From positions 138,750 to 202,749 of the forward strand of contig JBBRSB010000003.1 in assembly GCA_038245785.1 (NCBI GenBank): 64,000 nucleotides of DNA, in the 5' to 3' direction. The stretch's first letter is position 1. The number at the start of each line of letters is the position of its first letter. The position numbers and the translations under genes were made by a program. The notes beneath the pieces were generated by a model. It did no database searches. It saw only the letters and a program-made list of their open reading frames with translations, and was not told the origin of the DNA. Of this stretch, positions 3,175 through 34,404 are shown piece by piece. The stretch comes from Gloeobacterales cyanobacterium (GTDB lineage: Bacteria; Cyanobacteriota; Cyanobacteriia; Gloeobacterales; PMM-0068).

Positions 3175-4356
3175 TTAGCAAACTCTTGCCTGTTGTTGCC
3201 ACCATTGCACCGTCTGTTCGGTGATGATCTCCCAGGCAAACCTCTGCTGGACAGCTTGTTGGGCATTGTTGGCCAGTTTTTGGGCTAGGTCCTGATGAGT
3301 CAAAAGACGCAGAATCGCCCAGGCCAGATGGGCGCCACTCTTGGCCGGGACTTTCAGCCCACTGTATTCGTCGGCAACAATTTCAGCCAGCCCGCCCACA
3401 TCCGACACAACCACAGGCACGCCAGACGCCATCGCTTCTAAGGCGACAATGCCGAACGGCTCGTAGAGACTGGGAAAGGCACCTATATCTGCAACTCGAA
3501 TCAGGTCCTGAAGTTCTTCCTCGGGAAGATAGCCTGTAAAGTGCACGTGCTGATCTACTCTTAATTTCTGGCTACGACGCTGGACCTCTTCTAGATAAGG
3601 GCCACGACCGACGAGTACGGCCTTGGCATTGGGCATATTGCCCAGTAGATGGGGCATGGCCTCTACTAGGTAGCGCGCCCCTTTTTCATGGACCATCCGC
3701 CCGACAAAAAGGATCAGTTTCTGGTCTTCGGTGACATAGCGCTTGCGCACTTGGGCTCTTTCTTCTGGGCTCAAGGGAGGACGGGTATCTGGCTGGATAC
3801 CATTTGGGAAAATGCCGATTTTGGAGTCAGGAACTTGAAATAGCGTCTGGAGTTCTGCTTTCATCGCTTTCGAACAAACGATAACGTTATCGGCTTTATG
3901 GACCAACCATTCTTCCATCTTGTGAATATGACGTTGGAGAGCATGGTGTATCCCATCCATCCGGCCAGATTCTGTGGCATGCAGGGTAGCGCTCAGAGGA
4001 ATCTTCCACTTTTCCTGGAGGGCAATGCCTGCTTCTGCCGTAAGCCAATCGTGACAGTGGATCAGGTCAAAGGGTTGTTCTTGATGGAAGACCGGCGCTA
4101 TTTCCCGCAGCTGCTGGTTAAATCTACGGACCCATCCCAGGAAATCTTCCGTAGGGACGGGTGGGTGCAAAACATAATCGACTTGGACGCCCTTTAGGAT
4201 TTGGGTCTTGCCTTTGCTTTCTTCCTCAGGCGCAACGGTCAGGACATGGACTTGATGACCTTGCGCGACGAAGGATTCACAGAGTCCTTCGCAGTGTCGT
4301 GCCAACCCACCCACAATCCGTGGAGGATATTCCCAAGTAAGTTCAAGAATCCGCAT
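3175..4356 (-). CDS. GT4-family glycosyltransferase (position of the scytonemin-cluster glycosyltransferase)
   Basis: 393 aa. The N-terminus MRILELTWEYPPRIVGGLARH is typical, and the C-terminal EPFGIVALEAMASGVPVVVSDVGGLAEIV matches the E-x7-E region of group-1 glycosyltransferases. It is co-directional with, and downstream of, the scy genes. Confidence 0.85.
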   Translation of the reverse strand: MRILELTWEYPPRIVGGLARHCEGLCESFVAQGHQVHVLTVAPEEESKGKTQILKGVQVDYVLHPPVPTEDFLGWVRRFNQQLREIAPVFHQEQPFDLIHCHDWLTAEAGIALQEKWKIPLSATLHATESGRMDGIHHALQRHIHKMEEWLVHKADNVIVCSKAMKAELQTLFQVPDSKIGIFPNGIQPDTRPPLSPEERAQVRKRYVTEDQKLILFVGRMVHEKGARYLVEAMPHLLGNMPNAKAVLVGRGPYLEEVQRRSQKLRVDQHVHFTGYLPEEELQDLIRVADIGAFPSLYEPFGIVALEAMASGVPVVVSDVGGLAEIVADEYSGLKVPAKSGAHLAWAILRLLTHQDLAQKLANNAQQAVQQRFAWEIITEQTVQWWQQQARVC

Positions 4357-5001: not shown

Positions 5002-7158
5002 TTAAGGATGCTCTTCTTCTCTGTCTCCCTCACGCTGACGCAAGGCGGCATTCTTGACCTTCAGGACTTGAATGCGACTGTTGAAGAAATCGCCGACGTA
5101 CAGCTTACCTTTGTAGTAGTGAGCACCAGCGGTCCAGTTGAAGAGTCCCGGTTCAGGCAGAGGTTGTCCTGGTTGGAGAATGTTCTGGGGACCCGCATTG
5201 GGGACGGGTTTACCAAAGCTCGTCAGGAATTTTCCCTCCTTATTGAAGACTTGGATGCGGCTGTTGATCGAGTCTGCTACATAAACATTGTCGAACTCAT
5301 CCACCTCCACCCCGATCGGCTGATTGAGCTGTCCAGGTCCAACACCCGGCTCCCCAAACGCAAACAGGGGCTGACCTACAGGACTAAGCACTTGGATGCG
5401 GTTGTTTAATTGGTCTCCTACATAAATTTTGCCTGTTGTTGGGGAAACGGAAATCCCAGAGGGTCCTTGAAACTGTCCAAGTTCTTTACCCGGTGAGCCG
5501 ATCTTATTGATCAGGTCGCCATTGCGATTAAAGACCTGGATAAAGTCGCTGCTAAAATCGGTCACGTACAGTTTGCCGCTCTTGTCGAAGGTTAAACCCC
5601 CTGGACCAGAGAAAGCCCGCCCTTCAACCGGAGCTCCAAAACTCCCAAAAGACTTGATCGGGTTACCCTCACGGTCATAAACATTAATCCGGTTGTTAAA
5701 GACATCGCCTACATAGAGGTTGCCTGTTTCGTCGTCGAATTTCAGATCGGCGGGTTCATTGAGCTGTCCTAGACCCGTTCCACTGCTACCCACCGTTTTG
5801 ACAAAGTTGCCGCGCTCATCGAAGACTTGCAGTCGGTCCCCTTCACCATCGCTTACCCAGACCTGTCCGGTGCTGGGCTGCACGGTAATACCCTGAGGAA
5901 GGAAAATATTCGCAGGTCCAAAGCCGGGGCTGCTAATCGTCGATTCGTACTTCAATTTGACCGATTCACTCTTTTTCACCTTGTCAATCTTCACCTGTAG
6001 CACCTGTCCAAGACCGGGACTGGCTCCTTTGTTGGTGATGTAGATGGTGTCATCGGCCGCAATCGCCAGGGCTGTCGGAGCATCCAGTCCATTGCCACTC
6101 AGCAACACCGTTCGCTTACCGTTCGGGGCGATTTTGATCAGCGAACCTTCCATCGCTCCTGGCGTCATTTTCCAGGAAGCTTCGTTATAGATCTGAAGCA
6201 CGTACAGATTGCCCTTGCTGTCGAACTCTAAGTCGCCAAGCTGAGTAAAACCGGTTGCAAAGACTTCCGACTTCCCATCTCTGCCAACGCGGAGGATTCT
6301 GGCTGCACCTTCGGGATAAGGGAATCCTGTAAATTCGCTGGTGTAAACTGCGCCATCAGGGCCGACGGCAACCCCCGTGGGTACTGATTGCACTTCCTTG
6401 GGACCAGGAGGAGGAGCACCGCCGGGAGGAGCTGGTTGGTTAGGGTCAGGTGGGGGGAAAACAGGGTTATCAATGAACTGCGTGGGGAGCCCAAATCCTT
6501 CTGCCTTACCGTCTGTCAAGCGCACCGAGTAAAGCGAGTTACCCCCTGCATCCACAATGTACGCCTCACGGCCCTTGATCGCCACCGCATAGGGATTGGT
6601 GATTTTGCAGCCTAGAAAGTCAACTGCAGTGCACTTATCGGGATCATTATCTAGCTCGTATTGAGCGATGTCCAACAGACTTGTCAACTGGCCTGAACCT
6701 AAGTCGAATTTGTAAAACTGTCCAAAGGTCGGTTCTTGAAAAACGGCTTCGCGGTTTGCTGGGTCTCCTGCAAATCCATAAACTAGGTAGGCATTCCCTT
6801 CGGCATCAAACTGTATGTCCTGGGGACCCGCTCCTTCATTACCACTGGGCTGCAAGGCAAGAGAGGGCAGATTAGAAAAAATCCGCTCTTGCTTACCGTC
6901 TTTAATGCGGGTAATCGCCCCTGTATTGCCTACACAGAGAGGCAAACCTTGGACGCTTGGGGAAGGAATACAAGCGCCGCCGCCGCCAATGCCTGCTTCC
7001 GTTACATAGACGCTGCCGTCGGGACCGATGCCCAAGCCACGAGCGTTGTCTAGCTTGTCAGCAATGACTTTGTAGGTTGCGACTTCCTGCGCCGCGACAG
7101 GATAGGTCGTTGCTAAGCCGAGAGCAAGCAGGGCAACGATTGAGTTCTTGAATTTCAT
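5002..7158 (-). CDS. Secreted ScyD/ScyE-family beta-propeller fused to a six-NHL-repeat (ScyF-like) domain
   Basis: 718 aa with signal peptide MKFKNSIVALLALGLATTYPVAAQE. The N-terminal half has ScyD/ScyE-family signatures (LDNARGLGIGPDGSVYVTEAGIGGGGAC...CVGNTGAITRI). A Pro-rich insert follows. The C-terminal half has six NHL-type blades ending RLQVFDERG, RINVYDREG, FIQVFNRNG, RIQVLSPVG, RIQVFNKEG and RIQVLKVKN. It sits directly downstream of scyC. Confidence 0.75.
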   Translation of the reverse strand: MKFKNSIVALLALGLATTYPVAAQEVATYKVIADKLDNARGLGIGPDGSVYVTEAGIGGGGACIPSPSVQGLPLCVGNTGAITRIKDGKQERIFSNLPSLALQPSGNEGAGPQDIQFDAEGNAYLVYGFAGDPANREAVFQEPTFGQFYKFDLGSGQLTSLLDIAQYELDNDPDKCTAVDFLGCKITNPYAVAIKGREAYIVDAGGNSLYSVRLTDGKAEGFGLPTQFIDNPVFPPPDPNQPAPPGGAPPPGPKEVQSVPTGVAVGPDGAVYTSEFTGFPYPEGAARILRVGRDGKSEVFATGFTQLGDLEFDSKGNLYVLQIYNEASWKMTPGAMEGSLIKIAPNGKRTVLLSGNGLDAPTALAIAADDTIYITNKGASPGLGQVLQVKIDKVKKSESVKLKYESTISSPGFGPANIFLPQGITVQPSTGQVWVSDGEGDRLQVFDERGNFVKTVGSSGTGLGQLNEPADLKFDDETGNLYVGDVFNNRINVYDREGNPIKSFGSFGAPVEGRAFSGPGGLTFDKSGKLYVTDFSSDFIQVFNRNGDLINKIGSPGKELGQFQGPSGISVSPTTGKIYVGDQLNNRIQVLSPVGQPLFAFGEPGVGPGQLNQPIGVEVDEFDNVYVADSINSRIQVFNKEGKFLTSFGKPVPNAGPQNILQPGQPLPEPGLFNWTAGAHYYKGKLYVGDFFNSRIQVLKVKNAALRQREGDREEEHP

Positions 7159-7304: not shown

Positions 7305-8264
7305 TTAGGCAACGGGGAGATAGCTCATTCCCCGTTCAAACGTGGCAAGATTGCCCGCTTTTGCTTCCAGCAAGCGCTTGATATTCATACTTTCAGCGCC
7401 GTAGTCCTCGATTTGAAGTCTGCCGTGGGGCATAGGCTTCTGGAGGTCCCAAAAGGTAATACGGTGCTGAATAAGACCCTGCGCAGCATCATCCCCAAAG
7501 GCATAGGAGCAGGGTACGAGCAGCGTTGGGCAGCGCTGCATAAATTGATAGTCAGGATAGAAATAGTCCTGTTCGATCAGGGAGTACTTACCGAGCGAGT
7601 GGACTCGGAATGTCACCTGCACGGTGCGATTGTACTCGTCCAAAAACTCGCCCGACTGAGCGTTTTTCTCTGAGGTCACATCACCTTGTGGCCGAAGCAA
7701 GTGACACCACTCTTTGTGATTATCTAGATTGCCGATATAGTCGACGGCAAGGTCTAAGGGAGCATCCACGTAGATTGAATCTGTGTCAATCTTGTAGCGG
7801 CCGACGGCAGCAGCGGTATTCCCCTGCTTGCGCTCTAAAATTGCTTTCAGGGAGCGACATTCGGCGGTATGCACCGTGTGCACACCCTCCATAATCATCG
7901 GCGTGCGGCGGCGCGGATCGATAAAGCTGAGCCAATGGAAGTAAACGCCCGCCTCGTCTAGTCCTGGGTGGACATAGCCCGGCGGAAACAGCAGTACGGG
8001 ATAAACCTGAAAGTATTTGTTGTATTCGAAGCCGCAGTGCCACTCGATTCCATAAAAGAGTGGATTTTCAATTTTGCGAACGTGGTAGTAAAGATCGTTT
8101 TGGTAGCCGGAAGCTGTGCCCCGCCAGGTCTGCTCATCAATCTGTTCAATCATGTTGCTGAACAGCGTCCACTCATCCAGGTTCTGCAGTTCGTACAGAT
8201 AGTCGAAGGCTGTTTTGGGATCTGTGGCAATGTAGGCAGAGGTAGCAAATGTATTTTTTTCCAT
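7305..8264 (-). CDS. scyC: ScyC-like scytonemin biosynthesis protein
   Basis: 319 aa (MEKNTFATSAYIATDPKTAFDYL...). It lies between the Leu/Trp-dehydrogenase homolog and the ScyE/F-like gene, which is the size and position of scyC in the reference scyABCDEF operon. The call rests mainly on synteny. Confidence 0.7.
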   Translation of the reverse strand: MEKNTFATSAYIATDPKTAFDYLYELQNLDEWTLFSNMIEQIDEQTWRGTASGYQNDLYYHVRKIENPLFYGIEWHCGFEYNKYFQVYPVLLFPPGYVHPGLDEAGVYFHWLSFIDPRRRTPMIMEGVHTVHTAECRSLKAILERKQGNTAAAVGRYKIDTDSIYVDAPLDLAVDYIGNLDNHKEWCHLLRPQGDVTSEKNAQSGEFLDEYNRTVQVTFRVHSLGKYSLIEQDYFYPDYQFMQRCPTLLVPCSYAFGDDAAQGLIQHRITFWDLQKPMPHGRLQIEDYGAESMNIKRLLEAKAGNLATFERGMSYLPVA

Positions 8265-8278
8265 CGGTTACTTCTTGG

Positions 8279-9388
8279 TTACTCCTGCACAAGTTGTCTA
8301 CGTTCAAGGTTGGGAAGGGCATACGAGGGCAGCAGATGCCGTCCAATTCCTTCGCTTTTTGATTTTTCAATCAGCTTTTTAGCCAAGTGTTGTGCAGCCT
8401 CCTGGGTAGTTATTTCAGCTTGTTCGGCGTGCTCAAAGATCTCTAGCAAGGTGCCGTAGATATTGCTTAGCTGCGTTTGGACGCGCCCTTCGTGGTAGCC
8501 AATCATTTCGTTGTAGACATTGATCAAACCGCCCGCATTAATCACATAGTCTGGGCAGTAGAGAATATTCCTAGCCGTGAGCAGCCGACTGTGTTTTTGC
8601 TCATCATCCAGTTGGTTGTTGGCAGCACCGGCGACGATAGAAGCTTGCAGGCGCGGAATTGTCGTATCGTTCAGCACCCCTCCCATTGCACAAGGAGAGA
8701 AGACATCAACAGATAGGTCATAGATGGCATCAGGATCGATGATGGTGGCTCCATAGAGGTCAGCCATTTCCTGCGCTCGTTCCTGTCGCACATCGCTGAC
8801 AAAAAGCTCGGCTCCCCGCTCTGAGAGAAGTTGGCACAGGACTTGACCGACATTGCCCAACCCCTGCACCGCCACTTTTAACCCTTCAAAGCTTTGCCGC
8901 TGCAGACGGAATTCGACAGCGGCCTGCATGCCGAGCAGCACTCCTGCCGCCGTTAAGGGAACAGGACCGCCAGATTCTGCCTTCACGCCCATTACATAAC
9001 TGGTTTCACGGTGAATTTGATGGACGTCACGCAGCGAAATATTGACATCCTGGCCCGTAATAAACTGCCCTTTGAGCCGCTCTATAAATCGGCCATAGGC
9101 TCTAAGTAGGCGGTCATTTTTTTGTTTTGGATCGGCAATGATCACGCCTTTGCCACCGCCCACCGGAATACGGGCACAGGCCGCTTTGTAGGTCATACCC
9201 CGACTAAGGCGCAGGGCATCACGCAGGGCAGCATCCTCGCTGGCATAGGGGAAAAGGCGCGTGGCGCCCATCGCTGAACCGAAGTCTGTGTTGTGCAGCG
9301 CAATGATCGCTTTGAGACCAGTCGCTGGGTCGTGGCAAAAGAGAACCTGCTGATGCTCTGTTTCTCTGGTCGTTTCAAACAGTTTCAC
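8279..9388 (-). CDS. scyB: ScyB-like Glu/Leu/Phe/Val-dehydrogenase family enzyme (tryptophan dehydrogenase)
   Basis: 369 aa with the family motif RIPVGGGKGVI and the Rossmann motif AVQGLGNVGQVL. It is positioned between scyA and scyC. Confidence 0.8.
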   Translation of the reverse strand: MKLFETTRETEHQQVLFCHDPATGLKAIIALHNTDFGSAMGATRLFPYASEDAALRDALRLSRGMTYKAACARIPVGGGKGVIIADPKQKNDRLLRAYGRFIERLKGQFITGQDVNISLRDVHQIHRETSYVMGVKAESGGPVPLTAAGVLLGMQAAVEFRLQRQSFEGLKVAVQGLGNVGQVLCQLLSERGAELFVSDVRQERAQEMADLYGATIIDPDAIYDLSVDVFSPCAMGGVLNDTTIPRLQASIVAGAANNQLDDEQKHSRLLTARNILYCPDYVINAGGLINVYNEMIGYHEGRVQTQLSNIYGTLLEIFEHAEQAEITTQEAAQHLAKKLIEKSKSEGIGRHLLPSYALPNLERRQLVQE

Positions 9389-9473: not shown

Positions 9474-11372
9474 TTATTCTGTAAGCGGAAAAGAAACCTG
9501 TTTAGCCGAACTTGTAGGTTCTCTAAGCTGGATGAGGCTATCGTTCCGGCCTCGGGACGGGGCAGGTCGATCGGGGTCGATCAGCACATCTATAACAAAG
9601 GGTCCCGTCGCTGACATGGCCTGCGTGAGCGCCTGCTCCAAGTCACTTTCCTGATGAACCCGAATACCGTTCGCGCCCATACCTTGGGCAATCGCCACAA
9701 AATCAGTGTCTGGAATCATCGCATCAGCACCCTTGAGTCCAAGCATGGCCATCCCTTGAACGCACATGTTGTAGCGAGCATCATTGAGAACAATCCAAAC
9801 GGCTGGGACTTGATGCTTGACAGCGGTGCTAATTTCGTTGTTCATCAGCATTGAGCCATCCCCTGTAATCACTACTGCCTTACGTTTAGCAGCTTGAGCG
9901 AGACCGACCACGCCTGTAACCATATGACCCATGGCGCCGAGCCCGGTACTGACGCGATAGCGCCGTGGGTGAGAGAAGCGGAGTCGATGGGTCGCCCAAG
10001 TAAAGGAGTTGCCCGACTCCGCTAGCACAATCGCATTACTGCGGTCGATAACGAGTCGCTGGATCACATCCATCAATACTTCTGGGCGGACTAAGGAGCT
10101 ATGGGAGCCATTGCTGCTGGGCAGGGTGGCGACATGAGGACGGGGAAATGTCGGTGCTGGTTGGCTCGCTGGATCAGGGAAATGCTGCAGCAGCTCTGTC
10201 ATAAACAAATTAATCTCAGCCTGGATTGGCAGGGTCGGGGCCAGCGGATAGGCCACCCCTGGCACATTGGGGTCAATATCGACATGCAGAAAGCCGCCCG
10301 ACGGAACCATGGCGGCACTCCAAAAAGAGGTGGGCTCACCCAAGCGGGTACCAAGAACAAGAATGTGCGCTGGAGGCTGTTCGCGCATGTAGGTCAGAAC
10401 GGACTCATGCCCTCCCACTCCAGTCACGCCAACAAACTGAGGATGGTCTTCTGGGAAAATGCCTTTGCCACGCGGAGAACACATGACCGCCGCCCCAGTC
10501 CGTGCTGCCAGCTGGCGAATTGGTTCTGCGGCTAGCCGTGCACCAAAGCCGAGCCAGATAGCAAAGGGGGCAGAGGCTAAAATCTGCGCACAGTGGGCGA
10601 TGGTTGACGCACTGGGTATGATTTGAAACTGATGAGGCTGAGCAGTCTCAAGGGTTGGGAAGGTTGGGACGTGAGCAGGGGAAACCAGACTCGACTGCAC
10701 CCCGGTTGGAATGCTGATGTGCGCGACAAAACTTCCTGGTTGAGCCAGACCCAGTGCCAACCGGCGGGCAACTTGGGGCAACTCTTCTGGCGATTCTAAG
10801 GTCATGGCATAGTCAAAAAGCGCACCAGCGGTGAAGATGCCGCTATGAGGCATGCTGTGAATACTGGTTTCCTGGATCGCACCTCGTCCTCGTTGAGCGG
10901 CTGAAGTACAGGCCGACAGGAGAATTACTTTTGCGCCTTCCCCCCGCGCCGCTAGCAATCCCGTAAGCGCATTGGTAATTCCTGGACCGGCTGTGGTGAA
11001 TACGACCGTAGGTAAATCGCTGGCAAAATGGGCTTCGGTGGCAGCAAAGGCCGCACCCCCTTCATGGCGACAGTGAATGACAGAAATCTTTTGACTGTGA
11101 GAGAGGGAAAGCCAGAGAGAGGCGACGGCTCCCCCAGCGACCCCAAAGGCCGACTGAACACCCAAGTTCTCCAGCACGTTTACCAGTGCATTAGTGACTG
11201 TTAAAGGAGCAGCTAGCGGTGTGAAGCCAACTGCCATTTCGTCGGATTGAGACTGATGACTGTTATCTCTTTCGGAAATAATGCGATCGGCCACTACGGA
11301 TGGGACGGGCGCAGCAGCAATGTCAAGTCTGGGAACAGCTTCAGCGAATTTGTGAGATTTTTGAGTACTCAT
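9474..11372 (-). CDS. scyA: ScyA-like thiamine-diphosphate-dependent acyloin-forming enzyme (acetolactate synthase homolog)
   Basis: ORF 9474..11423 trimmed to ATG 11370-11372 (MSTQKSHKF...), which is preceded by AGGAG. It has ThDP-enzyme features (GVAGGAVASLW, TAGPGITNALTGL, ITGDGSMLMNNEISTAV). It is the first gene of the leftward operon. Confidence 0.8.
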   Translation of the reverse strand: MSTQKSHKFAEAVPRLDIAAAPVPSVVADRIISERDNSHQSQSDEMAVGFTPLAAPLTVTNALVNVLENLGVQSAFGVAGGAVASLWLSLSHSQKISVIHCRHEGGAAFAATEAHFASDLPTVVFTTAGPGITNALTGLLAARGEGAKVILLSACTSAAQRGRGAIQETSIHSMPHSGIFTAGALFDYAMTLESPEELPQVARRLALGLAQPGSFVAHISIPTGVQSSLVSPAHVPTFPTLETAQPHQFQIIPSASTIAHCAQILASAPFAIWLGFGARLAAEPIRQLAARTGAAVMCSPRGKGIFPEDHPQFVGVTGVGGHESVLTYMREQPPAHILVLGTRLGEPTSFWSAAMVPSGGFLHVDIDPNVPGVAYPLAPTLPIQAEINLFMTELLQHFPDPASQPAPTFPRPHVATLPSSNGSHSSLVRPEVLMDVIQRLVIDRSNAIVLAESGNSFTWATHRLRFSHPRRYRVSTGLGAMGHMVTGVVGLAQAAKRKAVVITGDGSMLMNNEISTAVKHQVPAVWIVLNDARYNMCVQGMAMLGLKGADAMIPDTDFVAIAQGMGANGIRVHQESDLEQALTQAMSATGPFVIDVLIDPDRPAPSRGRNDSLIQLREPTSSAKQVSFPLTE

Positions 11373-11637
11373 CCTTGCTTTTCTCCTGATGAAATCTGGA
11401 CTGCAATAAACTTTGAGAGGCACTAAAACAGCCAGTCTTTTAAACTTGATGAGTCAACAAAAATAGTCATCAAATACCGATAGAAATCAGTTTAAAACAC
11501 ATAAATAATGCATTGAGATTCACAGAGTGACTATGCAAAGCAAAACATTCTGTATCATCTTTTTTCATCTGTAGAGCTCAATCACAACTCAGTAACAGTA
11601 GCAATTGAAGTTTAATCAGACTTACAAAGCAGCACAA

Positions 11638-12096: not shown

Positions 12097-14337
12097 ATGA
12101 ATTTTGACTTCCATCGCTATAAGACTTACGGAGGGATCCGCATATCGCGCTCCGTTTCCAAGGTCGATCAAGACACGGCAATTGACCACGTGCGGTCGCA
12201 GCTCAATGTCCAGCGGGGAGCCTTGCTGTCTAGCAGCTATGAGTATCCAGGACGGTATAAGCGCTGGGCAATCGGTTTTATCAACCCGCCTCTGGAGCTG
12301 TCTACGCGCGGAAACACCTTTAAGCTGACGGCCCACAACGAGCGCGGGGCATTACTGCTCCCTTTGTTGGCAGAGCGACTACAGGCGCAGGCGCAAATCC
12401 AGCACGTGCAGAGGGCGCAGTACACGATTGAAGGCGCGATTGTCCCTGTCACAGAACCCTTTGCCGAAGAGGAACGCAGTCAGCAGCCATCCGCGTTCAG
12501 CGTCATTCGCGCGCTGCTGGATTTGTTCGCCAGTCCGGAAGATGAACACTTGGGGCTCTATGGTGCCTTTGGCTATGATTTGGTCTTTCAATTTGAACCG
12601 ATTCAACAAGCGCTGCAACGTCCAGCGGATCAGCGCGACTTGGTACTGTACCTACCCGATGAGCTAATCGTTGTCGACTACTACCTGCAGCAGACTTTAC
12701 GCTACACCTATGATTTTGAGACTGCCCATGGCAGCACCTCTGGTTTGGCGCGCACGGGCGAGGTGATCGACTACCGAGGCACCAGTGTTATCGATCAGCA
12801 AAGCGTGCCCTCGACACCTTCGACACCCGTATCTGGAGCCTATGCTGCCCAAGTTGAAGAAGCCAAGAAGTATTTCTGTCGGGGCGACCTCTTCGAAGTC
12901 GTGCTCAGTCAACAATTCTCCACTGCTTGTCAAGCATCCCCCGTCCAACTCTTCCAGACGCTTCAGCAAATCAACCCCAGCCCCTATGGTTTTCTACTCA
13001 ACCTCGGCGGTGAGTATCTGATTGGAGCCTCGCCTGAGATGTTTGTGCGCGTGGAAGGCAAGCGCGTGGAGACCTGCCCGATTAGCGGCACGATTCTGCG
13101 CGGGCAAGACGCCATGGGAGATGCCGAGCAAATTCGTCAGCTGCTCAACTCCTATAAGGACGAGACGGAACTAACGATGTGTACGGATGTCGACCGCAAC
13201 GACAAATCGCGCGTCTGTATTCCTGGCAGCGTGAAGGTGATTGGTCGTCGTCAAATTGAGCTATACAGCCATGTGATTCACACGGTCGATCATGTGGAAG
13301 GCATTCTGCGACCGGAATTTGATGCCCTGGATGCTTTTTTGTCCCATACCTGGGCCGTCACGGTCACAGGTGCTCCGAAGCGGGCGGCGATGCAGTTTAT
13401 CGAACGTCATGAAGACAGTGCGCGGCGATGGTATGGCGGTGCCGTCGGACGCCTTACGTTTAATGGCGATATGAATACGGGCTTAACGCTGCGCACCATC
13501 CGCTTTCAGAATGCGGTCGCAGAAGTTCGGGTCGGTGCTACTCTACTCTACGATTCCGTTCCCGAGGATGAAGCGCAAGAGACCTTGACCAAGGCAGCAG
13601 CTTTATTTGAGACCTTGAATAAAGCTGCCACCGGGGCTTTCGTTCCGCCAAAAGTCCGTCGAGGCGTTCCCATCGCAAGCAGTGAGGCGCAAGCCAGAGC
13701 CAGTTCAGGCAAGCGCGTTCTTTTGATTGACTACGAGGATTCTTTTGTCCATACCCTGGCGAATTACATCCGCCAAACCGGGGCGACGGTCACTACTTTA
13801 CGTCATGGTTTCTCCGTAGAGACCTTTGAGCGTGAACGTCCCGATCTAGTTGTGCTCTCTCCAGGACCGGGCAGACCGAACGACTTTCATGTTCCGCAAA
13901 CGGTCCGAGATTGCATCCAGCGGCAAATCCCTCTATTTGGCGTGTGCCTAGGTCTGCAGGGAATTGTCGAAGCCTTGGGTGGAACGCTGGGCGTTCTGAA
14001 CCCACCGCAGCACGGCAAGTCCTCTGAATTAAGGGTTACGGACCAAGAGTCTGCCCTGTTCCAAGGATTGCCTGAAGTATTTCCAATCGGGCGCTACCAC
14101 TCGCTCTATGCCCTGCCTGAGCGGCTCCCTGGGGATCTTAAGGTCACGGCGCTATCTCAGGACAACGTAATCATGGCCGTTGAGCATCGTCATCTACCAA
14201 TTGCGGCAGTGCAGTTCCATCCTGAATCGATCATGACTTTAGCCGGAGATGTGGGTTTGGCCATTATCCAGAACGTGCTCCAGACCTATGCCACAGCGTC
14301 TACGACCATAGAGGCAAGGCCAACTCCTGTGCGCTGA
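12097..14337 (+). CDS. trpE: Fused anthranilate synthase, components I and II (TrpE-TrpG)
   Basis: 746 aa. The N-terminal ~520 aa is a chorismate-binding TrpE (…GASPEMFVRV…, …TGAPKRAAMQFIE…). The C-terminal ~200 aa is a glutamine amidotransferase (…LFGVCLGLQGIVEA…, …AAVQFHPESI…). Confidence 0.9.
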   Translation: MNFDFHRYKTYGGIRISRSVSKVDQDTAIDHVRSQLNVQRGALLSSSYEYPGRYKRWAIGFINPPLELSTRGNTFKLTAHNERGALLLPLLAERLQAQAQIQHVQRAQYTIEGAIVPVTEPFAEEERSQQPSAFSVIRALLDLFASPEDEHLGLYGAFGYDLVFQFEPIQQALQRPADQRDLVLYLPDELIVVDYYLQQTLRYTYDFETAHGSTSGLARTGEVIDYRGTSVIDQQSVPSTPSTPVSGAYAAQVEEAKKYFCRGDLFEVVLSQQFSTACQASPVQLFQTLQQINPSPYGFLLNLGGEYLIGASPEMFVRVEGKRVETCPISGTILRGQDAMGDAEQIRQLLNSYKDETELTMCTDVDRNDKSRVCIPGSVKVIGRRQIELYSHVIHTVDHVEGILRPEFDALDAFLSHTWAVTVTGAPKRAAMQFIERHEDSARRWYGGAVGRLTFNGDMNTGLTLRTIRFQNAVAEVRVGATLLYDSVPEDEAQETLTKAAALFETLNKAATGAFVPPKVRRGVPIASSEAQARASSGKRVLLIDYEDSFVHTLANYIRQTGATVTTLRHGFSVETFERERPDLVVLSPGPGRPNDFHVPQTVRDCIQRQIPLFGVCLGLQGIVEALGGTLGVLNPPQHGKSSELRVTDQESALFQGLPEVFPIGRYHSLYALPERLPGDLKVTALSQDNVIMAVEHRHLPIAAVQFHPESIMTLAGDVGLAIIQNVLQTYATASTTIEARPTPVR

Positions 14338-14425
14338 GTTTAATAAGTCCTCTGTCTCTGAAAGAAAGAGCGCTCTAATCTTCTTCCCGTCATCCTCCTT
14401 CCTCTCTCCTTGCTGAGGTGCAGCC

Positions 14426-15277
14426 ATGCCCATTCCTTCCATGCCTACAACCAGCGCAGCGCCCCAGATCCTGAAAACCATCGTGCGCCATAAACGAGAG
14501 GAGGTTCAGCAACAGCAGGCTCAACTTCCTCTCGTTCAGCTGCAGCAAGTAAGCAGTACGCCCAGAGGCAAAATCAGCTTTCTCAACGCGCTGCAAAACA
14601 GCCAGCGTTCGCCCAGCTTGATTGCTGAGGTTAAAAAAGCATCCCCTAGTAAAGGCTTAATTCGTGACGATTTTGATCCCGTAGCCATCGCTCAGGCCTA
14701 TGAGCGCGCCGGGGCTGCCTGCATTTCGGTCCTGACCGATCAGCAGTTCTTTCAGGGTAGCTTTGACGATTTGCAGGCGGTGCGTCAGCAGGTGTCTCTG
14801 CCGCTGCTATGCAAAGAGTTTGTAGTGGATGCTTATCAGATTTACAAAGCGCGAGCAGCAGGAGCCGATGCGGTGCTGCTGATTGCAGCCGTCTTGTCGG
14901 ACCAAGAACTGCGAGACTTCCTGCGGCTGGCTCATGACTTGGGTATGGAAGCGTTGGTGGAGGTACATACCCTGGCAGAGCTTGAGCGGGTTATTCCCCT
15001 GCCAGAAATAGCTTTAATCGGTATCAACAACCGCAATCTGAACGATTTTACGGTTGACCTGGGTACCACCCGGCAGTTGATGACTGCCTACCGCCAGCAA
15101 TTCAGCGATCTGGGGATCGTCACGGTCAGCGAGTCGGGATTGCATACGGTTGCCGACCTCGCCTTCGTCACGGCTATGGGTGTCCGGGCCGTGCTCATCG
15201 GTGAAGCGCTGCTCAAACAACCCGACGTAGAGCGAGCTATCCGCAACTTGTTCTATACCCAACTTGATAACGGTTAA
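14426..15277 (+). CDS. trpC: Indole-3-glycerol-phosphate synthase
   Basis: 283 aa with [29 protein letters not shown] and GINNRNL motifs. Confidence 0.9.
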
Positions 15278-15296
15278 CCCTTACGGTCTCACTTCT

Positions 15297-16142
15297 ATGA
15301 CAACCACCACAGCGCACTCCCTAACCATTACTCAAGGATTCCAGGCACTCCGTGAGCGCCAGCACTGCGCCCTGATTCCGTTTATTACGGCAGGAGATCC
15401 TGATCTGGCAACAACGGCGGCGGCTCTGCAAATCCTCGATCGCAACGGGGCTGACTTTATTGAACTAGGGGTCCCTTATTCTGATCCTTTGGCCGACGGT
15501 CCCGTGATTCAAGCGGCGGCTACGCGGGCGCTACAGCGAGGCACCCGTCTAGAGTCTGTGCTCGGGATGCTCAAGTCCATTGGCCCCCGGTTAAAAGCGC
15601 CGATTATTCTCTTCACCTACTACAACCCAATCTTGAATTGCGGTGTTGCAACATTTCTGCAGAGAATCGCTGAGGTAGGCGTGAAAGGATTGGTGGTGCC
15701 TGATTTACCGATTGAGGAGGCCGCCGAACTGCTGAGGCTGGCAACTGATTTGGGTATTGAAGTCATTCTGCTTGTGGCACCCAACAGCTCAAAAGAGCGC
15801 ATTACTACGATTGCGCAGCAGTCTCAGGGCTTTATCTATCTCGTCAGCGTGACGGGGGTGACGGGAACACGCTCAAGCATCGAATCTCGTGTAGAAACGC
15901 TACTGCAAAATCTGCGGAGCATTACCGATAAGCCGATTGGGGTAGGCTTTGGAATTTCCAGCCCAGACCAGGCACGTCAGGCGCGCGTCTGGGGAGCAGA
16001 TGCCGTGATTGTGGGCAGTGCCTTCGTCAAGCACCTGGCGTCAGACTCTCCAACGGAAGGATTGCAGGCTATAGCCACGCTCTGTCGTGATTTGAAAGCG
16101 GCCATCGGTAATGAGAGCGCCAAGAGTCTATCGAAAACATAA
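15297..16142 (+). CDS. trpA: Tryptophan synthase alpha chain
   Basis: ORF 15264..16142 trimmed to ATG 15297. Motifs [30 protein letters not shown] and VGFGIS are present. Confidence 0.9.
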
Positions 16143-16168
16143 ATGACCCAATTCGGGAGGATCTTACC

Positions 16169-17410
16169 TTGACCAGTATTCTAACTAACAGTACGCACCC
16201 AACCGCTCAGACTCAACGTCCTGATGCCCTCGGTCGATTCGGACCGTTTGGCGGCAAATACGTCCCAGAGACGCTGATGCCTGCCCTGGCCGAACTTGAA
16301 GACGCCGTTCAGCAATGCCGCGCCGACGCTACTTTTCAAGCAGAACTGCATCAGCTTCTACATGACTATGTGGGCCGACCCAGCCCGCTCTATTTTGCCG
16401 AACGCCTAACGGCGCACTACGCCCGCCCTGATGGCACAGGCCCGCAAATCTATCTCAAACGAGAGGACCTAAATCATACGGGGGCGCACAAAATTAATAA
16501 CGCCGTCGCCCAAGCGCTGCTGGCAAAGCGGATGGGAAAACAGCGCGTCATTGCTGAAACGGGAGCAGGCCAACATGGGGTTGCAACGGCAACCGCCTGT
16601 GCTCGTTTTGGACTCAGCTGCGTGATTTACATGGGCATCCACGACATGAAGCGACAGGAGCTGAACGTGTTTCGGATGCGCTTGCTCGGGGCGGAAGTAC
16701 GACCTGTTGAGGCCGGTACCGGTACGCTCAAGGATGCAACCTCCGAAGCGATCCGCGATTGGGTCACAAACGTGGAAACGACTCACTATATCCTCGGGTC
16801 GGTAGCAGGGCCTCATCCTTACCCGATGATTGTGCGTGACTTTCATGCCGTGATTGGGAAAGAAACCCGTGTTCAATGCCAGGAGCATTGGGGAGGACTG
16901 CCGGATATTCTGCTGGCCTGCGTCGGCGGCGGCTCAAATGCGATCGGCCTGTTTCATGAGTTCATCGACGAACCGACCGTGCGGCTGATCGGGGTAGAAG
17001 CAGCGGGAGAGGGCATCGACACGCAGAAGCACGCTGCCACCTTGACCCTGGGACGCGTCGGCGTACTGCACGGAGCGATGAGCTACCTGCTGCAAGATGA
17101 AGACGGTCAAATCATCGAACCCCATTCAATTAGCGCTGGACTCGACTATCCCGGTGTCGGGCCAGAGCATAGCTATCTCAAGGACGCACGCCGCGCCGAA
17201 TATTACAGCGTTACGGATACTCAGGCACTCGCTGCTTTCCAGCAGCTTGCGCAACTTGAAGGCATCATTCCAGCGTTAGAAACTGCCCATGCCGTCGCCT
17301 ATTTGGAAACGCTCTGCCCTCAGATGAGAGACAGTCCTCGGATTGTGCTCAACTGCTCTGGGCGAGGCGATAAGGATGTGCAAACCGTGATTAACACGCT
17401 GGATCTCTAA
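16169..17410 (+). CDS. trpB: Tryptophan synthase beta chain
   Basis: 413 aa with [25 protein letters not shown] and GGGSNAIG. The apparent start is TTG at 16169, with GGGAGG 8 nt upstream. The nearby ATG 16143 is in another frame and terminates after 9 codons. Confidence 0.9.
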
Positions 17411-17420
17411 AGCCCCCCGG

Positions 17421-17438
17421 CCCCCCAATTCTGGGGGG
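17421..17438. repeat. Palindromic hairpin repeat CCCCCC-AATTCT-GGGGGG (copy 2 of 3)
   Basis: It begins 11 nt after the trpB stop and is followed by gagaagcatcc. It may act as an intra-operon terminator or processing hairpin. Confidence 0.75.
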
Positions 17439-17500
17439 AGAAGCATCCTTCGCTTCAGACCCTATTTTCAATTCTTCGAACGGCCAACGGCATACAAAGC

Positions 17501-17516
17501 CCCCCAATTCTGGGGG
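17501..17516. repeat. Palindromic hairpin repeat CCCCC-AATTCT-GGGGG (copy 3 of 3)
   Basis: This is the second copy in the trpB/DAHP-synthase spacer. It is followed by atttggggggcaagcatctcc, so both spacer copies are trailed by AAGCATC. Confidence 0.75.
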
Positions 17517-17577
17517 ATTTGGGGGGCAAGCATCTCCATATGCTCCAAAATCAACAACCTAACAGAGGATAAAAGTC

Positions 17578-18642
17578 ATGATCATAGTCGTAAAGACAGG
17601 GGCACCAGAGGCTGAAATTACCCGTATTGGAAAAGACCTGTACCGTGAGTATGGCGTTACTTCTGAAAAGCTCGCTGGACAGAGCAAGGTCGTCATTGGC
17701 CTGATTGGTGAAACAGCTACGCTCAATCGTCAGCAAATACAGGCCATCAGTCCCTGGATTGAGCAAGTTTTACGGATCGAGCAACCATTCAAGCGCGTAA
17801 GCCGAGAATATCGACAGGGCATAGCGAGTGAAGTCGTGGTTTCTACGCCAAATGGCCCCGTTGCTTTCGGAGAGCAGCATCCACTGGTGCTAACCGCTGG
17901 CCCTTGCTCCGTTGAAAACGAGGCGATGATTGTAGAAACGGCAAAGCGTGTCAAAGCGGCAGGGGCACAATTTTTGCGTGGTGGAGCCTTTAAGCCTCGC
18001 TCATCACCCTACGCCTTCCAAGGCCATGGCGAAAGTGCTTTAGAATTGCTGGCGGCAGCCCGTAGCGCTACCGGGCTGGGAATTATCACCGAACTGATGG
18101 ACGCTGCGGATCTGGAACAGGTGGCAGCCGTGGCTGATGTGATCCAAATCGGTGCCCGCAATATGCAAAATTTCTCGCTGCTCAAGAAGGTGGGTGCTCA
18201 AGATAAGCCTGTGCTGCTCAAGCGTGGTCCATCGGCCAACATTGATGAGTGGCTCCTAGCAGCGGAGTATCTGCTCGCTGCCGGAAATCCGAATGTGATT
18301 CTCTGTGAGCGCGGCATTCGCACGTTTGATTCTAAATACGCACGCAATACTTTAGATTTATCAGTTATTCCCGTGCTCAGGCTGTTGACCCATCTGCCGA
18401 TCATGATTGATCCGAGTCATGGCACAGGGCGCTCCCAGTATGTCCCGGCGATGGCGATGGCAGCCATCGCTGCTGGTACCGATGCTTTGATGATCGAAGT
18501 CCATCCCGACCCCGCAAAAGCGCTCTCCGATGGCCCACAGTCGCTGACTCCTCAGCAATTTGATGAGCTCACCGTACAAATGGCGGTGATTAGCAAAGCT
18601 GTGGGGCGCTGGTCACAGCCTGCTGTTGCCGCAATCGCCTAA
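17578..18642 (+). CDS. aroG: 3-deoxy-7-phosphoheptulonate (DAHP) synthase, type I-beta with N-terminal regulatory domain
   Basis: 354 aa. A ~75-aa ACT/ferredoxin-like N-terminal domain (MIIVVKTGAPEAEI...) precedes the KDSA/DAHPS I-beta core (AGPCSVENE, FLRGGAFKPRSSPY, IGARNMQNF, DPSHGTG). Confidence 0.85.
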   Translation: MIIVVKTGAPEAEITRIGKDLYREYGVTSEKLAGQSKVVIGLIGETATLNRQQIQAISPWIEQVLRIEQPFKRVSREYRQGIASEVVVSTPNGPVAFGEQHPLVLTAGPCSVENEAMIVETAKRVKAAGAQFLRGGAFKPRSSPYAFQGHGESALELLAAARSATGLGIITELMDAADLEQVAAVADVIQIGARNMQNFSLLKKVGAQDKPVLLKRGPSANIDEWLLAAEYLLAAGNPNVILCERGIRTFDSKYARNTLDLSVIPVLRLLTHLPIMIDPSHGTGRSQYVPAMAMAAIAAGTDALMIEVHPDPAKALSDGPQSLTPQQFDELTVQMAVISKAVGRWSQPAVAAIA

Positions 18643-18673
18643 TCTGCCATCTGTTTCACAGGAGCGCACAAGG

Positions 18674-19777
18674 ATGAAGACCCTGCAACAGCTTGACCAT
18701 GACTTGATTCAATTACTGAATCAGCGAGCTGCCCTTCTAGGAAAAGCGTATGATTCCAGTTTGCCTGCTGAAACCTCTCAACACTTGGCCCAGACGGGTT
18801 TACCGGAGTTTGTCTGGGAAAGTCTCGCCACCTGTTGCGCAGCAGCAACAACAGTGGCCCCAGCCGCATTGAGTTCTCCTAAGCAGATCACTATCATTGG
18901 CGGTGCGGGACAGATGGGCCGCTTTTTTACTCGGCAGTTTGCTGCCGCTGGTCATAGCGTCCGGCAACTAAGGCGACATGACTGGGAGAAGGCCGATCAG
19001 TACTTGAGTGATGCAGACTTAGTCCTTGTCTCTGTGCCGATGCAACAAACAGTAGAAGTAATTCAGCGGGCGTCACCCTACCTATCGCCAACATCGGCCA
19101 TTGCAGATGTCAACAGCCTCAAAGCGCCCGTTGTCAAAGCGATGTTAGAACATCACCCTGGCCCGGTGCTCGGAATGCATCCAATGTTTGGGCCAGGGCT
19201 ATCATCGTTCCTCGCGCAGAATGTGGTGGTTTGCCCAGGGCGGGACCTGAGAGCCTTCAAATGGCTACTGGATTTAATCCGCAGTCAAGGAGGAAAACTG
19301 CTGGTCTGCGCGCCAGAAGAACACGACCGGATGATGGTGACGGTTCAGGCTATCCGCCATTTCTCTGCCTTTGGCCTGGGAGTCTTCCTCGCAGAAGCGG
19401 GCATCGACCTTGACCGGAGCTTGGACTTTTCCAGTGCTCCCTATCGCCTACAGCTCAATTTAGTCAGTCGGTTATTCGCTCAGGATGCCGCGTTGCCTCT
19501 AGATCTGATGCTGAGTTCACCAGATCATCGTCAAGCTATTTGCACCTTAGCAGACACCTACAGCCGCCTCGCCCAGTTGATTGTACAAGAGGATCAAGCC
19601 ACCCTGGAGCAAGCGTTTGAGTCCACTAAACAGGTTTTTCAAATGCACGTTCCTCAAGCCCACCAGGAAAGCCAACATATCGTTCAAAGCCTAAGCGTAC
19701 ACTTGGCAGCCAACAGCAAAATGCCCCTTGCATTGCCTAAAGCGGGTGAAGGGCCGAGGGCTAAGCTTCTCAGATAA
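18674..19777 (+). CDS. tyrA: Prephenate/arogenate dehydrogenase TyrA with a short chorismate-mutase-like N-terminal helix
   Basis: ORF 18626..19777 trimmed to ATG 18674 (MKTLQQLDHDLIQLLNQRAALLGKAY). It has the Rossmann motif ITIIGGAGQMGRFF and the TyrA core ...VLGMHPMFGP.... Confidence 0.8.
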   Translation: MKTLQQLDHDLIQLLNQRAALLGKAYDSSLPAETSQHLAQTGLPEFVWESLATCCAAATTVAPAALSSPKQITIIGGAGQMGRFFTRQFAAAGHSVRQLRRHDWEKADQYLSDADLVLVSVPMQQTVEVIQRASPYLSPTSAIADVNSLKAPVVKAMLEHHPGPVLGMHPMFGPGLSSFLAQNVVVCPGRDLRAFKWLLDLIRSQGGKLLVCAPEEHDRMMVTVQAIRHFSAFGLGVFLAEAGIDLDRSLDFSSAPYRLQLNLVSRLFAQDAALPLDLMLSSPDHRQAICTLADTYSRLAQLIVQEDQATLEQAFESTKQVFQMHVPQAHQESQHIVQSLSVHLAANSKMPLALPKAGEGPRAKLLR

Positions 19778-19783
19778 ACAGGC

Positions 19784-19912
19784 ATGGGCAGCACTTTTGG
19801 ACATTTGTTTCGGGTATCTACCTTTGGAAAGTCTCACGGCGACGAGGTGGGGGCGATTGTCGAAGGCTGTCCACCCTGTAGACGAACTCTTCAATTTGCG
19901 ACCAAGAGCTGA
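19784..19912 (+). pseudogene. aroC: Chorismate synthase (aroC) 5' remnant
   Basis: ATG 19784 opens [31 protein letters not shown], the hallmark AroC N-terminus (G-x-x-F-G-x-x-F-R-x-[ST]-T-F-G-E-S-H-G). Similarity ends after ~31 codons, and the frame stops at 19910-19912 inside the 3' end of the convergent regulator gene. Confidence 0.65.
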
Positions 19913-20688
19913 TGTTCCTTGCGCCAAACTTGAGGAGGAATGCCATGGTACTGGAGGAACTGCCGGAAGAAGTGGCGGGAATTGACGTACCCGACCGTTC
20001 GTGCTACTTGTTCGACGGACTGATCACTATTCTCAAGGATTTGGCGTGCCTCGGCCATGCGTCGCTCAATAATCCAACGAGCAACCGTGCGTCCTGTTTG
20101 CCTGCCTACCAGTGTTGTCAGATAAGCAGGCGAATAGCCAGCAGCCTGAGCCACATCAGATAGCGTAATGGGCAAATGGTAATTTGCCTCAATAAAGTCG
20201 AAGACTGCCTGGAGTTGCGTACTCGTGGGAAAGAGTGACTTGGAAGTTCCTGACGCTGTAAGGACGCTCACAGCCTGTTTTCCTAAGCCCATTTCACTAA
20301 CTTGAATATCTTGACGAGCGACTTGTTTTTTCAATTGAGCCGAGATTGCTTCCAGCAATTGAGCGACGGTTAAGGGTTTGATTAGATAGCTGTCTTTGTC
20401 CACATCCATGTCTGGCAGAAACTTTGGACCAATTACACCACTGGTGATGAATATAAATGGAATAGTGGCTGTCGCCGGAAGCTTGCGCAGCCTAGTCAAT
20501 ACATCATGCCCATCTAGCTCTGGCATCCAGGTATTGCAGATGATTACATCGGGTAAACGCCGTTGCGCTTGATGGATACCGATAGCACCATTTTCCGCCC
20601 CAATCGCGTGAAAACCCTCGGTCTTTAAACAGACGGTGAAAAGATTTCGCGTACATTCATCGGCTTCTATGACTAAAACTTTTTTCAT
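19891..20688 (-). CDS. Response regulator: CheY-like receiver + AraC-type HTH (scytonemin-associated type); Asn at the predicted phospho-acceptor position
   Basis: 265 aa. The receiver reads [11 protein letters not shown]...[16 protein letters not shown]...FIFITS...YLIKP. The C-terminal AraC HTH reads [24 protein letters not shown]...[13 protein letters not shown]. The codon at 20533-20535 (AAT on the minus strand) occupies the position normally held by the phosphorylated Asp. Confidence 0.85.
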
Positions 20689-20790
20689 ATGCTTCCTGTT
20701 GCGAGGATTAAAAATTCACTACAAGCATTTGAAATGTTGGGCATGATTGGCAGCAGCTAACATGCCAATCCCGTTGTCTAAAATCCAATT

Positions 20791-23766: not shown

Positions 23767-23778
23767 CGGTCCTGCTTA

Positions 23779-23821
23779 TCGAAAAAATGGACGCTTTGTC
23801 GAAAACATGTCGAAAAAATGG
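23779..23821. promoter_or_regulatory. Three direct copies of TCGAAAA(A/C)ATG(G) in the eboA-eboB spacer
   Basis: tcgaaaaaatgg at 23779-23790, tcgaaaacatg at 23799-23809 and tcgaaaaaatgg at 23810-23821. They lie in a 230-bp gap inside an otherwise tightly packed cluster. Confidence 0.35.
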
Positions 23822-23996
23822 TCCTTGCACTGTCTTTGAAGTCTTATTAAGCTCTGGCTTAGGGAAATAAGGCAAAAGCTCAACAGCTCTGACCCTATAC
23901 ACAGGTTCTTAGGAGCTTGCAGGTGACAAAGGCTGGTTTTGCCTGTTCTTTTCCCAATTTAGGCGCATAGTTCCTCGCACTTATTCAGGTCATCCC

Positions 23997-24935: not shown

Positions 24936-25013
24936 GGTTGGTGTTTTGAACTTCTGAGCTAGAAAGAGGTGCTATGACCGCGCCCAATTCCGAATTGCAT
25001 CAGAGGGAAGCAG

Positions 25014-29227: not shown

Positions 29228-29276
29228 TCCGTCACAGCCAATCTACACCTAACCTTTTCACCCAAGCTCCTAACCG

Positions 29277-34152: not shown

Positions 34153-34404
34153 CGATCGTCCACAGCCCTGTTCTAACCCACTATCCGAATAGAATCGGTG
34201 CATTACGCTCCCTATGGCTGTTAACGTGCAGTGCCACGAAAAGACCGCATCCTCCTTGCGGTAGGGCAGTAGATCACCTGTGAAATGTTTGAAAGAATTT
34301 TGGTTTTGGGGTTCACCGGGTGCATTATAGTGATGCTCCCCTGACGATCCTACCCCTCCCGTCATGAAGTGTGGTCTAGCAGGGGACTCTCGGAGAATAT
34401 AAAG

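Follow-up and report, generated by a model that had tools for sequence, protein, structure and literature searches.

A stretch of 64,000 nucleotides from a Gloeobacterales cyanobacterium (contig JBBRSB010000003.1 of assembly GCA_038245785.1, positions 138,750 to 202,749 of the forward strand), here referred to as the window, contains a scytonemin-type (scy) gene cluster in which scyE and scyF are joined into one gene. Sequence and comparison point to a single exported polypeptide in which a ScyE ortholog is followed by an ortholog of mature ScyF, and this arrangement is conserved. We consider it probable that this one secreted ScyE-ScyF polypeptide was born by an in-frame deletion of about 300 nucleotides and that its two propellers act as a unit on the scytonemin monomer. 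The fusion alters the architecture of a known pathway within one lineage and does not represent a new kind of system.

The gene occupies positions 5002 to 7158 on the minus strand and consists of 718 codons and a stop codon, with an ATG start and without any internal stop; a GGAG ribosome-binding site is located 5 nucleotides 5' of the ATG. An uninterrupted reading frame of this length had been claimed in the original prediction, which did not give the strand, along with four parts in the order of a signal peptide, a ScyD/ScyE-type region, a short linker and a ScyF-type NHL domain. Both claims hold, the signal peptide being recognized by inspection and the ScyE and ScyF parts by NCBIfam models. 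The parts are located as follows:

5002-7158, minus strand: scyE-scyF fusion gene, 718 amino acids, a single open reading frame with two NCBIfam models in tandem; stop codon at 5002-5004
7090-7158, minus strand: putative Sec-type signal peptide, residues 1-23, MKFKNSIVALLALGLATTYPVAA with cleavage before QE; from sequence inspection, alignable to the signal peptides that unfused ScyE proteins carry
5992-7071, minus strand: ScyE domain, residues 30-389, predicted six-bladed beta-propeller with Cys63 and Cys75; NF033206
5962-5985, minus strand: fusion junction with the linker DKVKKSES of 8 amino acids, residues 392-399; from comparison with the unfused ScyE and ScyF of two related loci, L003 and L006
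5047-5979, minus strand: ScyF domain, residues 394-704, predicted six-blade NHL propeller without a signal peptide of its own; NF035926
5005-5046, minus strand: charged C-terminal tail, ALRQREGDREEEHP, without a PEP-CTERM sorting signal; from sequence inspection

Residues 30-389 match NF033206, the model for the ScyD/ScyE family, with 408 bits at a cutoff of 80 and across profile positions 1-332 of 333, which places the N-terminal half in the family that had been proposed for it; the motifs originally quoted from this half were also found there. All invariant columns of the ScyD/ScyE family are kept, including the invariant pair Cys63 and Cys75. Residues 394-704 match NF035926, the ScyF equivalog model, with 456 bits at a cutoff of 350 (profile positions 17-347 of 376), and the same half gives a Pfam NHL match (E = 1.7e-31) and contains six blade motifs of the LYVGDxxNxRIQV type (residues 433-446, 481-494, 530-543, 578-591, 625-638 and 686-699). 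Chance cannot explain domain scores of this size. Because NF035926 is matched only at positions 17-347 of 376, ScyF's own signal peptide and its PEP-CTERM tail are both absent: profile positions 1-16 are unmatched at the start of the ScyF half, and positions 348-376 are unmatched at its end, where the tail reads ALRQREGDREEEHP. The C-terminal half is orthologous to ScyF without being a PEP-CTERM protein.

The N-terminus of the fusion protein, MKFKNSIVALLALGLATTYPVAA followed by QE, has n, h and c regions and a V-A-A cleavage motif before the Q, as judged by inspection and not by a predictor. In the AlphaFold2 model this region forms a helix at residues 5-14, with a predicted local distance difference test (pLDDT) score below 50 over residues 1-23. 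The linker DKVKKSES follows the last strand of ScyE (GQVLQVKI) and leads into mature ScyF at its first residue (VKLKYESTISSPGF), and it falls inside the interval of about 5930-6000 in which the junction was expected. The annotation of the fusion protein by the Joint Genome Institute (JGI) is only "DNA-binding beta-propeller fold protein YncE."

Because the window comes from one assembly and the fusion was first noticed in sequence alone, two genes might have been wrongly read as one through an artefact of assembly, sequencing or gene calling. The exact protein of 718 amino acids was also called in an independent Logan assembly of SRR19962014, so that it is known from both NCBI and Logan, on contigs of up to 230 kb, and a version of 720 amino acids, 95% identical, is located behind scyA-scyB-scyC in the same order in two metagenome assemblies from the European Nucleotide Archive (ENA; L001, L002). 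The 90% cluster of the fusion protein contains eight distinct sequences of 715-720 amino acids from four data sources (ENA, JGI, NCBI and Logan), and all eight agree in the junction and in the length of the linker (IDKVKKSES, LDKVKRSES, IDNVKKTES). Relative to unfused scyE and scyF, about 300 nucleotides of ScyE tail, spacer and signal peptide are missing outright, with no frameshift. Furthermore, the comparison of the window with the allele in L001 gave a synonymous divergence (dS) of 0.48 and a ratio of nonsynonymous to synonymous divergence (dN/dS) of 0.05 in the ScyE half and 0.03 in the ScyF half. The fusion is thus old enough for many silent changes, and the constraint at the codon level shows that both halves are maintained; for the ScyF half, decay was rejected on its dN/dS of 0.03. 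The recurrence of the protein, the absent nucleotides and the purifying selection effectively refute an artefact, to which we assign a negligible chance.

How the fusion arose can be approached through its nearest unfused relatives, P0002 in locus L003 (JGI 3300081903) and P0004 in locus L006 (GCA_965190705.1), at about 80% identity. This sister clade shares with the window the scyA-scyB-scyC order, a divergent trpE-trpC-trpA-trpB block and the absence of both scyD and PEP-CTERM tails, and its ScyC, ScyE and ScyF are 78-86% identical to those of the window. It differs in that ScyE (420-421 amino acids) and ScyF (351-352 amino acids) are encoded by separate genes with a spacer of 108-131 nucleotides, the former with a charged tail and the latter with a signal peptide of its own of 27 amino acids, neither of which is present in the fusion. 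The ends compare as follows:

Sister ScyE, C-terminus: ...GQVLKVKI, then a charged tail of about 28 amino acids
Sister ScyF, N-terminus: MKFIKACTVSFASAACILLAANTAALA, then VELTYKTTISSPGF
Fusion, at the junction: ...GQVLQVKI, then DKVKKSES, then VKLKYESTISSPGF

Judged from this comparison, the ancestral operon is best reconstructed as scyA-scyB-scyC-scyE-scyF, already without scyD and without PEP-CTERM tails. The junctions point to one in-frame deletion of about 300 nucleotides, which took the ScyE tail and stop codon, the spacer of 108-131 nucleotides and exactly the 27-codon signal peptide of ScyF. Homology to the sisters at the DNA level ends after the codons AAG ATT GA, and the alignment is compatible with the eight linker codons being derived from the start of the ScyE tail or not. 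The loss of scyD is not tied to the fusion, because the unfused sister clade is already scyABC-scyE-scyF.

The spacer between scyE and scyF in the sister clade (L003, 11264-11394; L006, 11267-11373) contains blocks that are conserved between both genomes (CCGGGGATAGTTTGAAAA... and TATTGCAAGTAGTCA...). These blocks, which are deleted in the fusion, may represent a regulatory or processing element.

The family model NF033206 does not tell ScyD from ScyE, and some D-position proteins in Nostoc are closer to the N-terminal half in raw identity (49-51%) than are the E-position proteins of the same operon (43-49%). It is thus conceivable that this half is of the ScyD type, the dispensable paralog, or a stand-alone propeller of the ScyD/ScyE family, and that the essential enzyme is not fused at all. 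A tree-based assignment of the paralog had been proposed from the outset, and for this we collected ScyD/ScyE-type reading frames from 80 species-representative loci, which cover loci outside the genome of the window and its sister clade (closest locus, 56% identity), and labelled them by their position in the operon. In neighbour-joining trees, which are distance-based, without an outgroup, and were computed with 200 bootstraps, the N-terminal half and its unfused sisters are placed inside a clade of E-position proteins, that is, those encoded between ScyD and ScyF. With the fusion included, this clade has a bootstrap support of 91.5%, and 100% of the replicates recover a split with the fusion and all E-position proteins on one side and all D-position proteins on the other. 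Likewise, the gene fills the slot between scyC and scyF in the unfused sisters, and the N-terminal half is the sole member of the ScyD/ScyE family in the cluster. We rejected the ScyD identity on these grounds and hold it to be very improbable. Because it is placed in the E-position clade, away from the D-position proteins, we assign the N-terminal half as an ortholog of ScyE and not of ScyD; with the C-terminal half above the ScyF equivalog cutoff, the reading as a ScyE-ScyF fusion stands.

The fusion is rare. A search of 5.8 billion 90% clusters returned the cluster of the fusion itself as the only full-length match (1553 bits), the next match being an unfused ScyE at 710 bits. Among 1.84 billion representatives, in a search dominated by giant multi-NHL proteins, no other protein of about 700 amino acids scored on both halves except P0228, a tandem of two ScyD/ScyE-type domains. 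The search of the 90% clusters provides the stronger negative, because 50% clusters may hide a fusion behind an unfused representative. None of the 80 species-representative loci has a reading frame that carries both domains, and none of the scytonemin papers that we found mentions a fusion of ScyE and ScyF. The survey of scytonemin clusters that was suggested with the original prediction thus recovered the fusion in its own lineage, in the eight sequences, but in none of the 80 loci. About 15 loci with the full scyC-scyD-scyE-scyF context agree with the premise that scyD, scyE and scyF are separate genes in operons of the reference type.

The two halves can be compared with their stand-alone counterparts. 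Like the ScyE half of the fusion, ScyE of Nostoc punctiforme (Npun_R1272-type) matches NF033206, belongs to the same clade, contains the conserved cysteine pair and starts with a Sec signal, which is putative in the fusion, and is encoded downstream of scyC and next to the ScyF sequence. The ScyE half differs from the ScyE proteins of the Nostocales in having no PEP-CTERM tail and in a C-terminus that runs into a second propeller, at 43-59% identity. ScyF (Npun_R1271-type, an NHL-repeat PEP-CTERM protein) is, like the C-terminal half, a six-blade NHL propeller that passes the equivalog cutoff; the C-terminal half is 48-67% identical to stand-alone ScyF proteins (57% to P0104) and differs from the Npun_R1271 type in having no signal peptide, no PEP-CTERM anchor and no separate gene. 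Scytonemin clusters without scyD are already known (PMC4870267, PMC6529634). The scyABCEF cluster of Chroococcidiopsis thermalis PCC 7203 resembles the window in having scyABC, scyE and scyF with no adjacent scyD (PMC4870267, PMC6529634), and ScyE in such clusters is short and without PEP-CTERM, as here, but scyE and scyF are separate.

Other secreted multi-propeller proteins built from the ScyD/ScyE-family domain are P0228 (720 amino acids) and P0074 (1013 amino acids), which differ from the fusion in that the same domain is duplicated rather than combined with ScyF, at 40-41% identity and with no scy context known. Such tandems indicate that the ScyD/ScyE family makes multi-propeller proteins also in other contexts, not related to scytonemin. 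In P0074, each ScyD/ScyE-type copy is followed by another repeated segment, and the precomputed Pfam list for this protein includes PF07452.

In the operon loci of the Nostocales type that we surveyed, a C-terminal tail is present on nearly all ScyD, ScyE and ScyF proteins. It consists of the motif VPEP (occasionally VPES or VPEA), a stretch of 16-19 hydrophobic residues and a basic cluster, and in every surveyed four-gene locus of this type both the E-position protein and ScyF carry it. This PEP-CTERM tail is absent from ScyE and ScyF in the clade of the window, whether fused or unfused, and from the scyC-scyE-scyF locus L035. Furthermore, about 30 of the 120 best ScyE-family matches are also without it, for example proteins of 394 amino acids in Chroococcidiopsis. 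The absence of PEP-CTERM was probably a precondition for the fusion, because a membrane-anchoring tail in the middle of the protein would be incompatible with a soluble fusion of two propellers. With no PEP-CTERM on these proteins, the late step cannot depend here on their processing by an exosortase. In N. punctiforme, cyanoexosortase B (CrtB) is essential for scytonemin (PMC12188702), and the clade of the window does not fit this exosortase-dependent model.

Structure models are in line with a pair of propellers. When modelled alone with AlphaFold2, the ScyE half is confidently predicted to form a six-bladed propeller (pLDDT 91.5; predicted TM-score, pTM, 0.91). No match to the ScyE half was obtained by sequence in the Protein Data Bank, and its best solved folds, at a TM-score normalised to query length (TMq) of about 0.5, are the NHL-derived Pizza6 designs, PknD, streptogramin B lyase, the lactonases SMP-30, Drp35 and RPA3624, and PAL. 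In the model of the full-length protein (pLDDT 80, pTM 0.63) the second propeller is a six-blade NHL propeller, and Foldseek relates the ScyF half to the NHL domains of TRIM71, TRIM2 and Brat at a TM-score normalised to target length (TMt) of 0.81-0.88. The last ScyE strand (residues 384-392) and the first ScyF strand (residues 400-409) are modelled with the linker alone between them. The multiple sequence alignment for the full-length model contained ScyE rows only: MAFFT, in every mode tried, put stand-alone ScyF proteins on the ScyE half, and the use of window fragments as anchors did not correct this misplacement. With ScyF homologs missing from this alignment, the orientation of the two propellers is unreliable and the ScyF half is of moderate confidence.

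The fusion gene is the last of a run on the minus strand with the order scyA-scyB-scyC-fusion. This run and the genes around it are located as follows:

7305-8264, minus strand: scyC, immediately upstream in the same operon; NF035924, 577 bits, cutoff 400
8279-9388, minus strand: scyB-like tryptophan dehydrogenase; NF035922, 573 bits, cutoff 600
9474-11423, minus strand: scyA-like thiamine diphosphate (ThDP) enzyme; NF035923, 960 bits, cutoff 1020
3175-4356, minus strand: glycosyltransferase of family 4 (GT4), downstream of the fusion gene on the same strand
12097-19777, plus strand: divergent precursor-supply block with trpE(G), trpC, trpA, trpB, 3-deoxy-D-arabino-heptulosonate 7-phosphate (DAHP) synthase and tyrA
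19891-22023, minus strand: AraC-type response regulator and short scytonemin-type sensor histidine kinase
22840-30650, plus strand: ebo cluster with eboA, TatD-type eboB, eboC, eboD of the dehydroquinate (DHQ) synthase type, a chimeric duplicate reading frame, eboE and the phosphodiesterase eboF

The cluster around the fusion gene appears from its predicted genes to have everything needed for making and exporting the monomer. ScyC and the ScyF half score above their equivalog cutoffs and the ScyA-like and ScyB-like proteins slightly below theirs, and because these two fall just under, we regard the scy cluster as a divergent member of its kind. In N. punctiforme, Ebo proteins export the scytonemin monomer (PMC6282210), and by analogy the ebo cluster is presumed to export the monomer on which the fusion protein would act. 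No second homolog of ScyD/ScyE or of ScyF was found within the 64-kb window, in accordance with the original claim that scyD is lacking here; a distant scyD may be present elsewhere in the genome. Compared with the 18-gene cluster of N. punctiforme, no tyrosinase-like gene (tyrP), DsbA-like gene, trpD or separate aroB was seen among the larger reading frames scanned at positions 1-31000 of the window. Scans with Rfam and for tRNAs gave nothing relevant.

Some further features of the region were observed. The sensor histidine kinase (20791-22023, minus strand) has 410 amino acids and matches the scytonemin kinase model with 400 bits at a cutoff of 865, at positions 421-633 of 637; the N-terminal sensor part that such kinases usually have is missing or different. 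Positions 26862-28480 (plus strand) contain a tandem duplication, diverged to 76-86% identity and about 810-820 base pairs long, which includes the 3' end of eboD together with a 5' portion of eboE. The duplication yields the extra chimeric reading frame at 27160-27990, the 276-amino-acid product of which combines the N-terminus of EboE (profile positions 1-156 of 379) with the C-terminus of EboD (profile positions 307-398 of 407). Genes for Uma2-family putative endonucleases flank the scy and ebo region (31277-31861, minus strand; 34369-35019, plus strand), and in L003, one of the unfused relatives, another such gene (14962-15570) follows closely after the scy operon.

In N. punctiforme, ScyE and ScyF are both periplasmic (PMC4870267, PMC6282210). 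ScyE is essential for the late step and its loss leaves the monomer in the periplasm (PMC4870267, PMC6282210), which agrees with the essential role ascribed to it in the original prediction. ScyF has been described as an "adjuvant" that is dispensable, its loss lowering the yield (PMC4870267). We propose that the single N-terminal Sec signal of the fusion protein would export both propellers in a 1:1 stoichiometry, and that the short linker would then hold them side by side in the periplasm. As a single unit the pair may then act on the monomer, supplied by the Ebo system encoded nearby, and exosortase and PEP-CTERM processing would not be needed for this. Exported and held together as one chain, ScyE and ScyF would cooperate on the dimerisation step. 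By the Rosetta-stone argument, the fusion is also a hint that physical cooperation between ScyE and ScyF is the rule, even where they are encoded by separate genes.

Several points weigh against such a joint action. The models provide no evidence of a contact between the domains, the full-length pTM being 0.63 and the ScyF half moderately confident. Only one narrow lineage has the fusion, and since it occurs in 0 of the 80 loci, tethering is not generally required. Post-export cleavage at the lysine-rich linker may separate the two propellers again. Moreover, adjacent genes on the same strand fuse readily by deletion, and the event could have been selectively neutral. Taken to its end, this last point makes the fusion an accident, a tolerated in-frame deletion after which the propellers work independently and which has no bearing on a complex of ScyE and ScyF. 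The restriction to one lineage among all clusters surveyed, the dispensability of ScyF in N. punctiforme and the ease with which co-oriented neighbours with a spacer of 108-131 nucleotides can fuse all fit with an accident of this kind. Mild arguments in the other direction come from the persistence of the fusion over a dS of about 0.48, during which both halves were under strong purifying selection and the linker did not vary in length, and from the end-point of the deletion, which is exactly at the signal-peptidase site of ScyF, so that a functional mature N-terminus was preserved. We consider a neutral accident unlikely, although it is the alternative that deserves the most attention.

A different question is the product, which may be something other than scytonemin itself, ScyA and ScyB being slightly under their equivalog cutoffs; this also counts against a unit that acts on the scytonemin monomer. 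The cluster might make a related but different indole-phenol pigment, in which case the fused late-step enzyme would reflect a changed reaction. The scores of ScyA (960 versus 1020 bits) and ScyB (573 versus 600 bits), the lack of tyrosinase-like, DsbA-like, trpD and aroB genes among the cluster-adjacent reading frames scanned and the large distance of the host lineage from the model organisms are all in favour of another pigment. Against this, ScyC and ScyF pass their equivalog cutoffs, the invariant residues of the ScyE family are all kept, the shortfalls of ScyA and ScyB are small and of the kind predicted by phylogenetic distance, and the ebo and precursor genes correspond to those of scytonemin clusters. 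A different pigment is therefore improbable in our judgement, and we favor the hypothesis of a ScyE-ScyF unit that acts on the scytonemin monomer.

The host appears, from two markers and without an outgroup, to be a deep-branching cyanobacterium affiliated with the Gloeobacterales. In the neighbour-joining tree of GyrA (gyrA, 41060-43606, minus strand), the lineage of the window groups with Gloeobacter violaceus, Gloeobacter kilaueensis and one more sequence, apart from 13 crown-group cyanobacteria, with 100% bootstrap support; the two Gloeobacter species are 71% and 69% identical to the window in GyrA, and all others 66-68%. For PheT (pheT, 37874-40321, minus strand), the best named match is Anthocerotibacter panamensis at 57%, and the neighbour-joining tree places the window beside Anthocerotibacter; this is a weak indication of the affiliation, since a predefined grouping did not match the topology and received a bootstrap of 0. 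The scy cluster may have been acquired horizontally by this host.

Gloeobacter has been treated as a Scy-less lineage (PMC9796282), and Sivonenia alaskensis, a candidate species of the Gloeobacterales, has been reported without key scy and ebo genes being found in it (PMC10438808). No description of a complete scy and ebo cluster in the Gloeobacterales was seen in the papers that we found, and against this background a complete locus in this order would be noteworthy. We can tentatively envisage an uncultured, Gloeobacterales-affiliated host with a complete and streamlined system, consisting of scyABC, a single-chain ScyE-ScyF protein and ebo, with no scyD and no dependence on PEP-CTERM and exosortase, although we regard this combined picture as rather doubtful. 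A Gloeobacterales host would also bear on the dating of scytonemin evolution in which Gloeobacter is taken as a Scy-less lineage (PMC9796282). If the cluster was vertically inherited, the synthesis of scytonemin would be older than the split between the Gloeobacteria and the crown cyanobacteria, and the fused enzyme would represent a minimal, exosortase-independent form of the dimerising step.

The last step in the synthesis of scytonemin, a periplasmic oxidative dimerisation attributed to ScyE, is still biochemically unresolved. The expression of scy genes in Escherichia coli did not result in scytonemin (PMC6282210), the absorbance maximum of which is 384 nm in acetone extracts (PMC6282210). 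With its fixed 1:1 stoichiometry and one signal peptide, the fusion is a construct for heterologous work. As a gene under purifying selection it provides a concrete hypothesis of ScyE and ScyF as a functional pair, and it is a case of a late step independent of PEP-CTERM and exosortase, in contrast to the requirement for CrtB in N. punctiforme (PMC12188702). The fusion also draws attention to a scytonemin cluster in what is probably an early-branching cyanobacterium, and it represents a natural experiment on the poorly understood final step of scytonemin synthesis.

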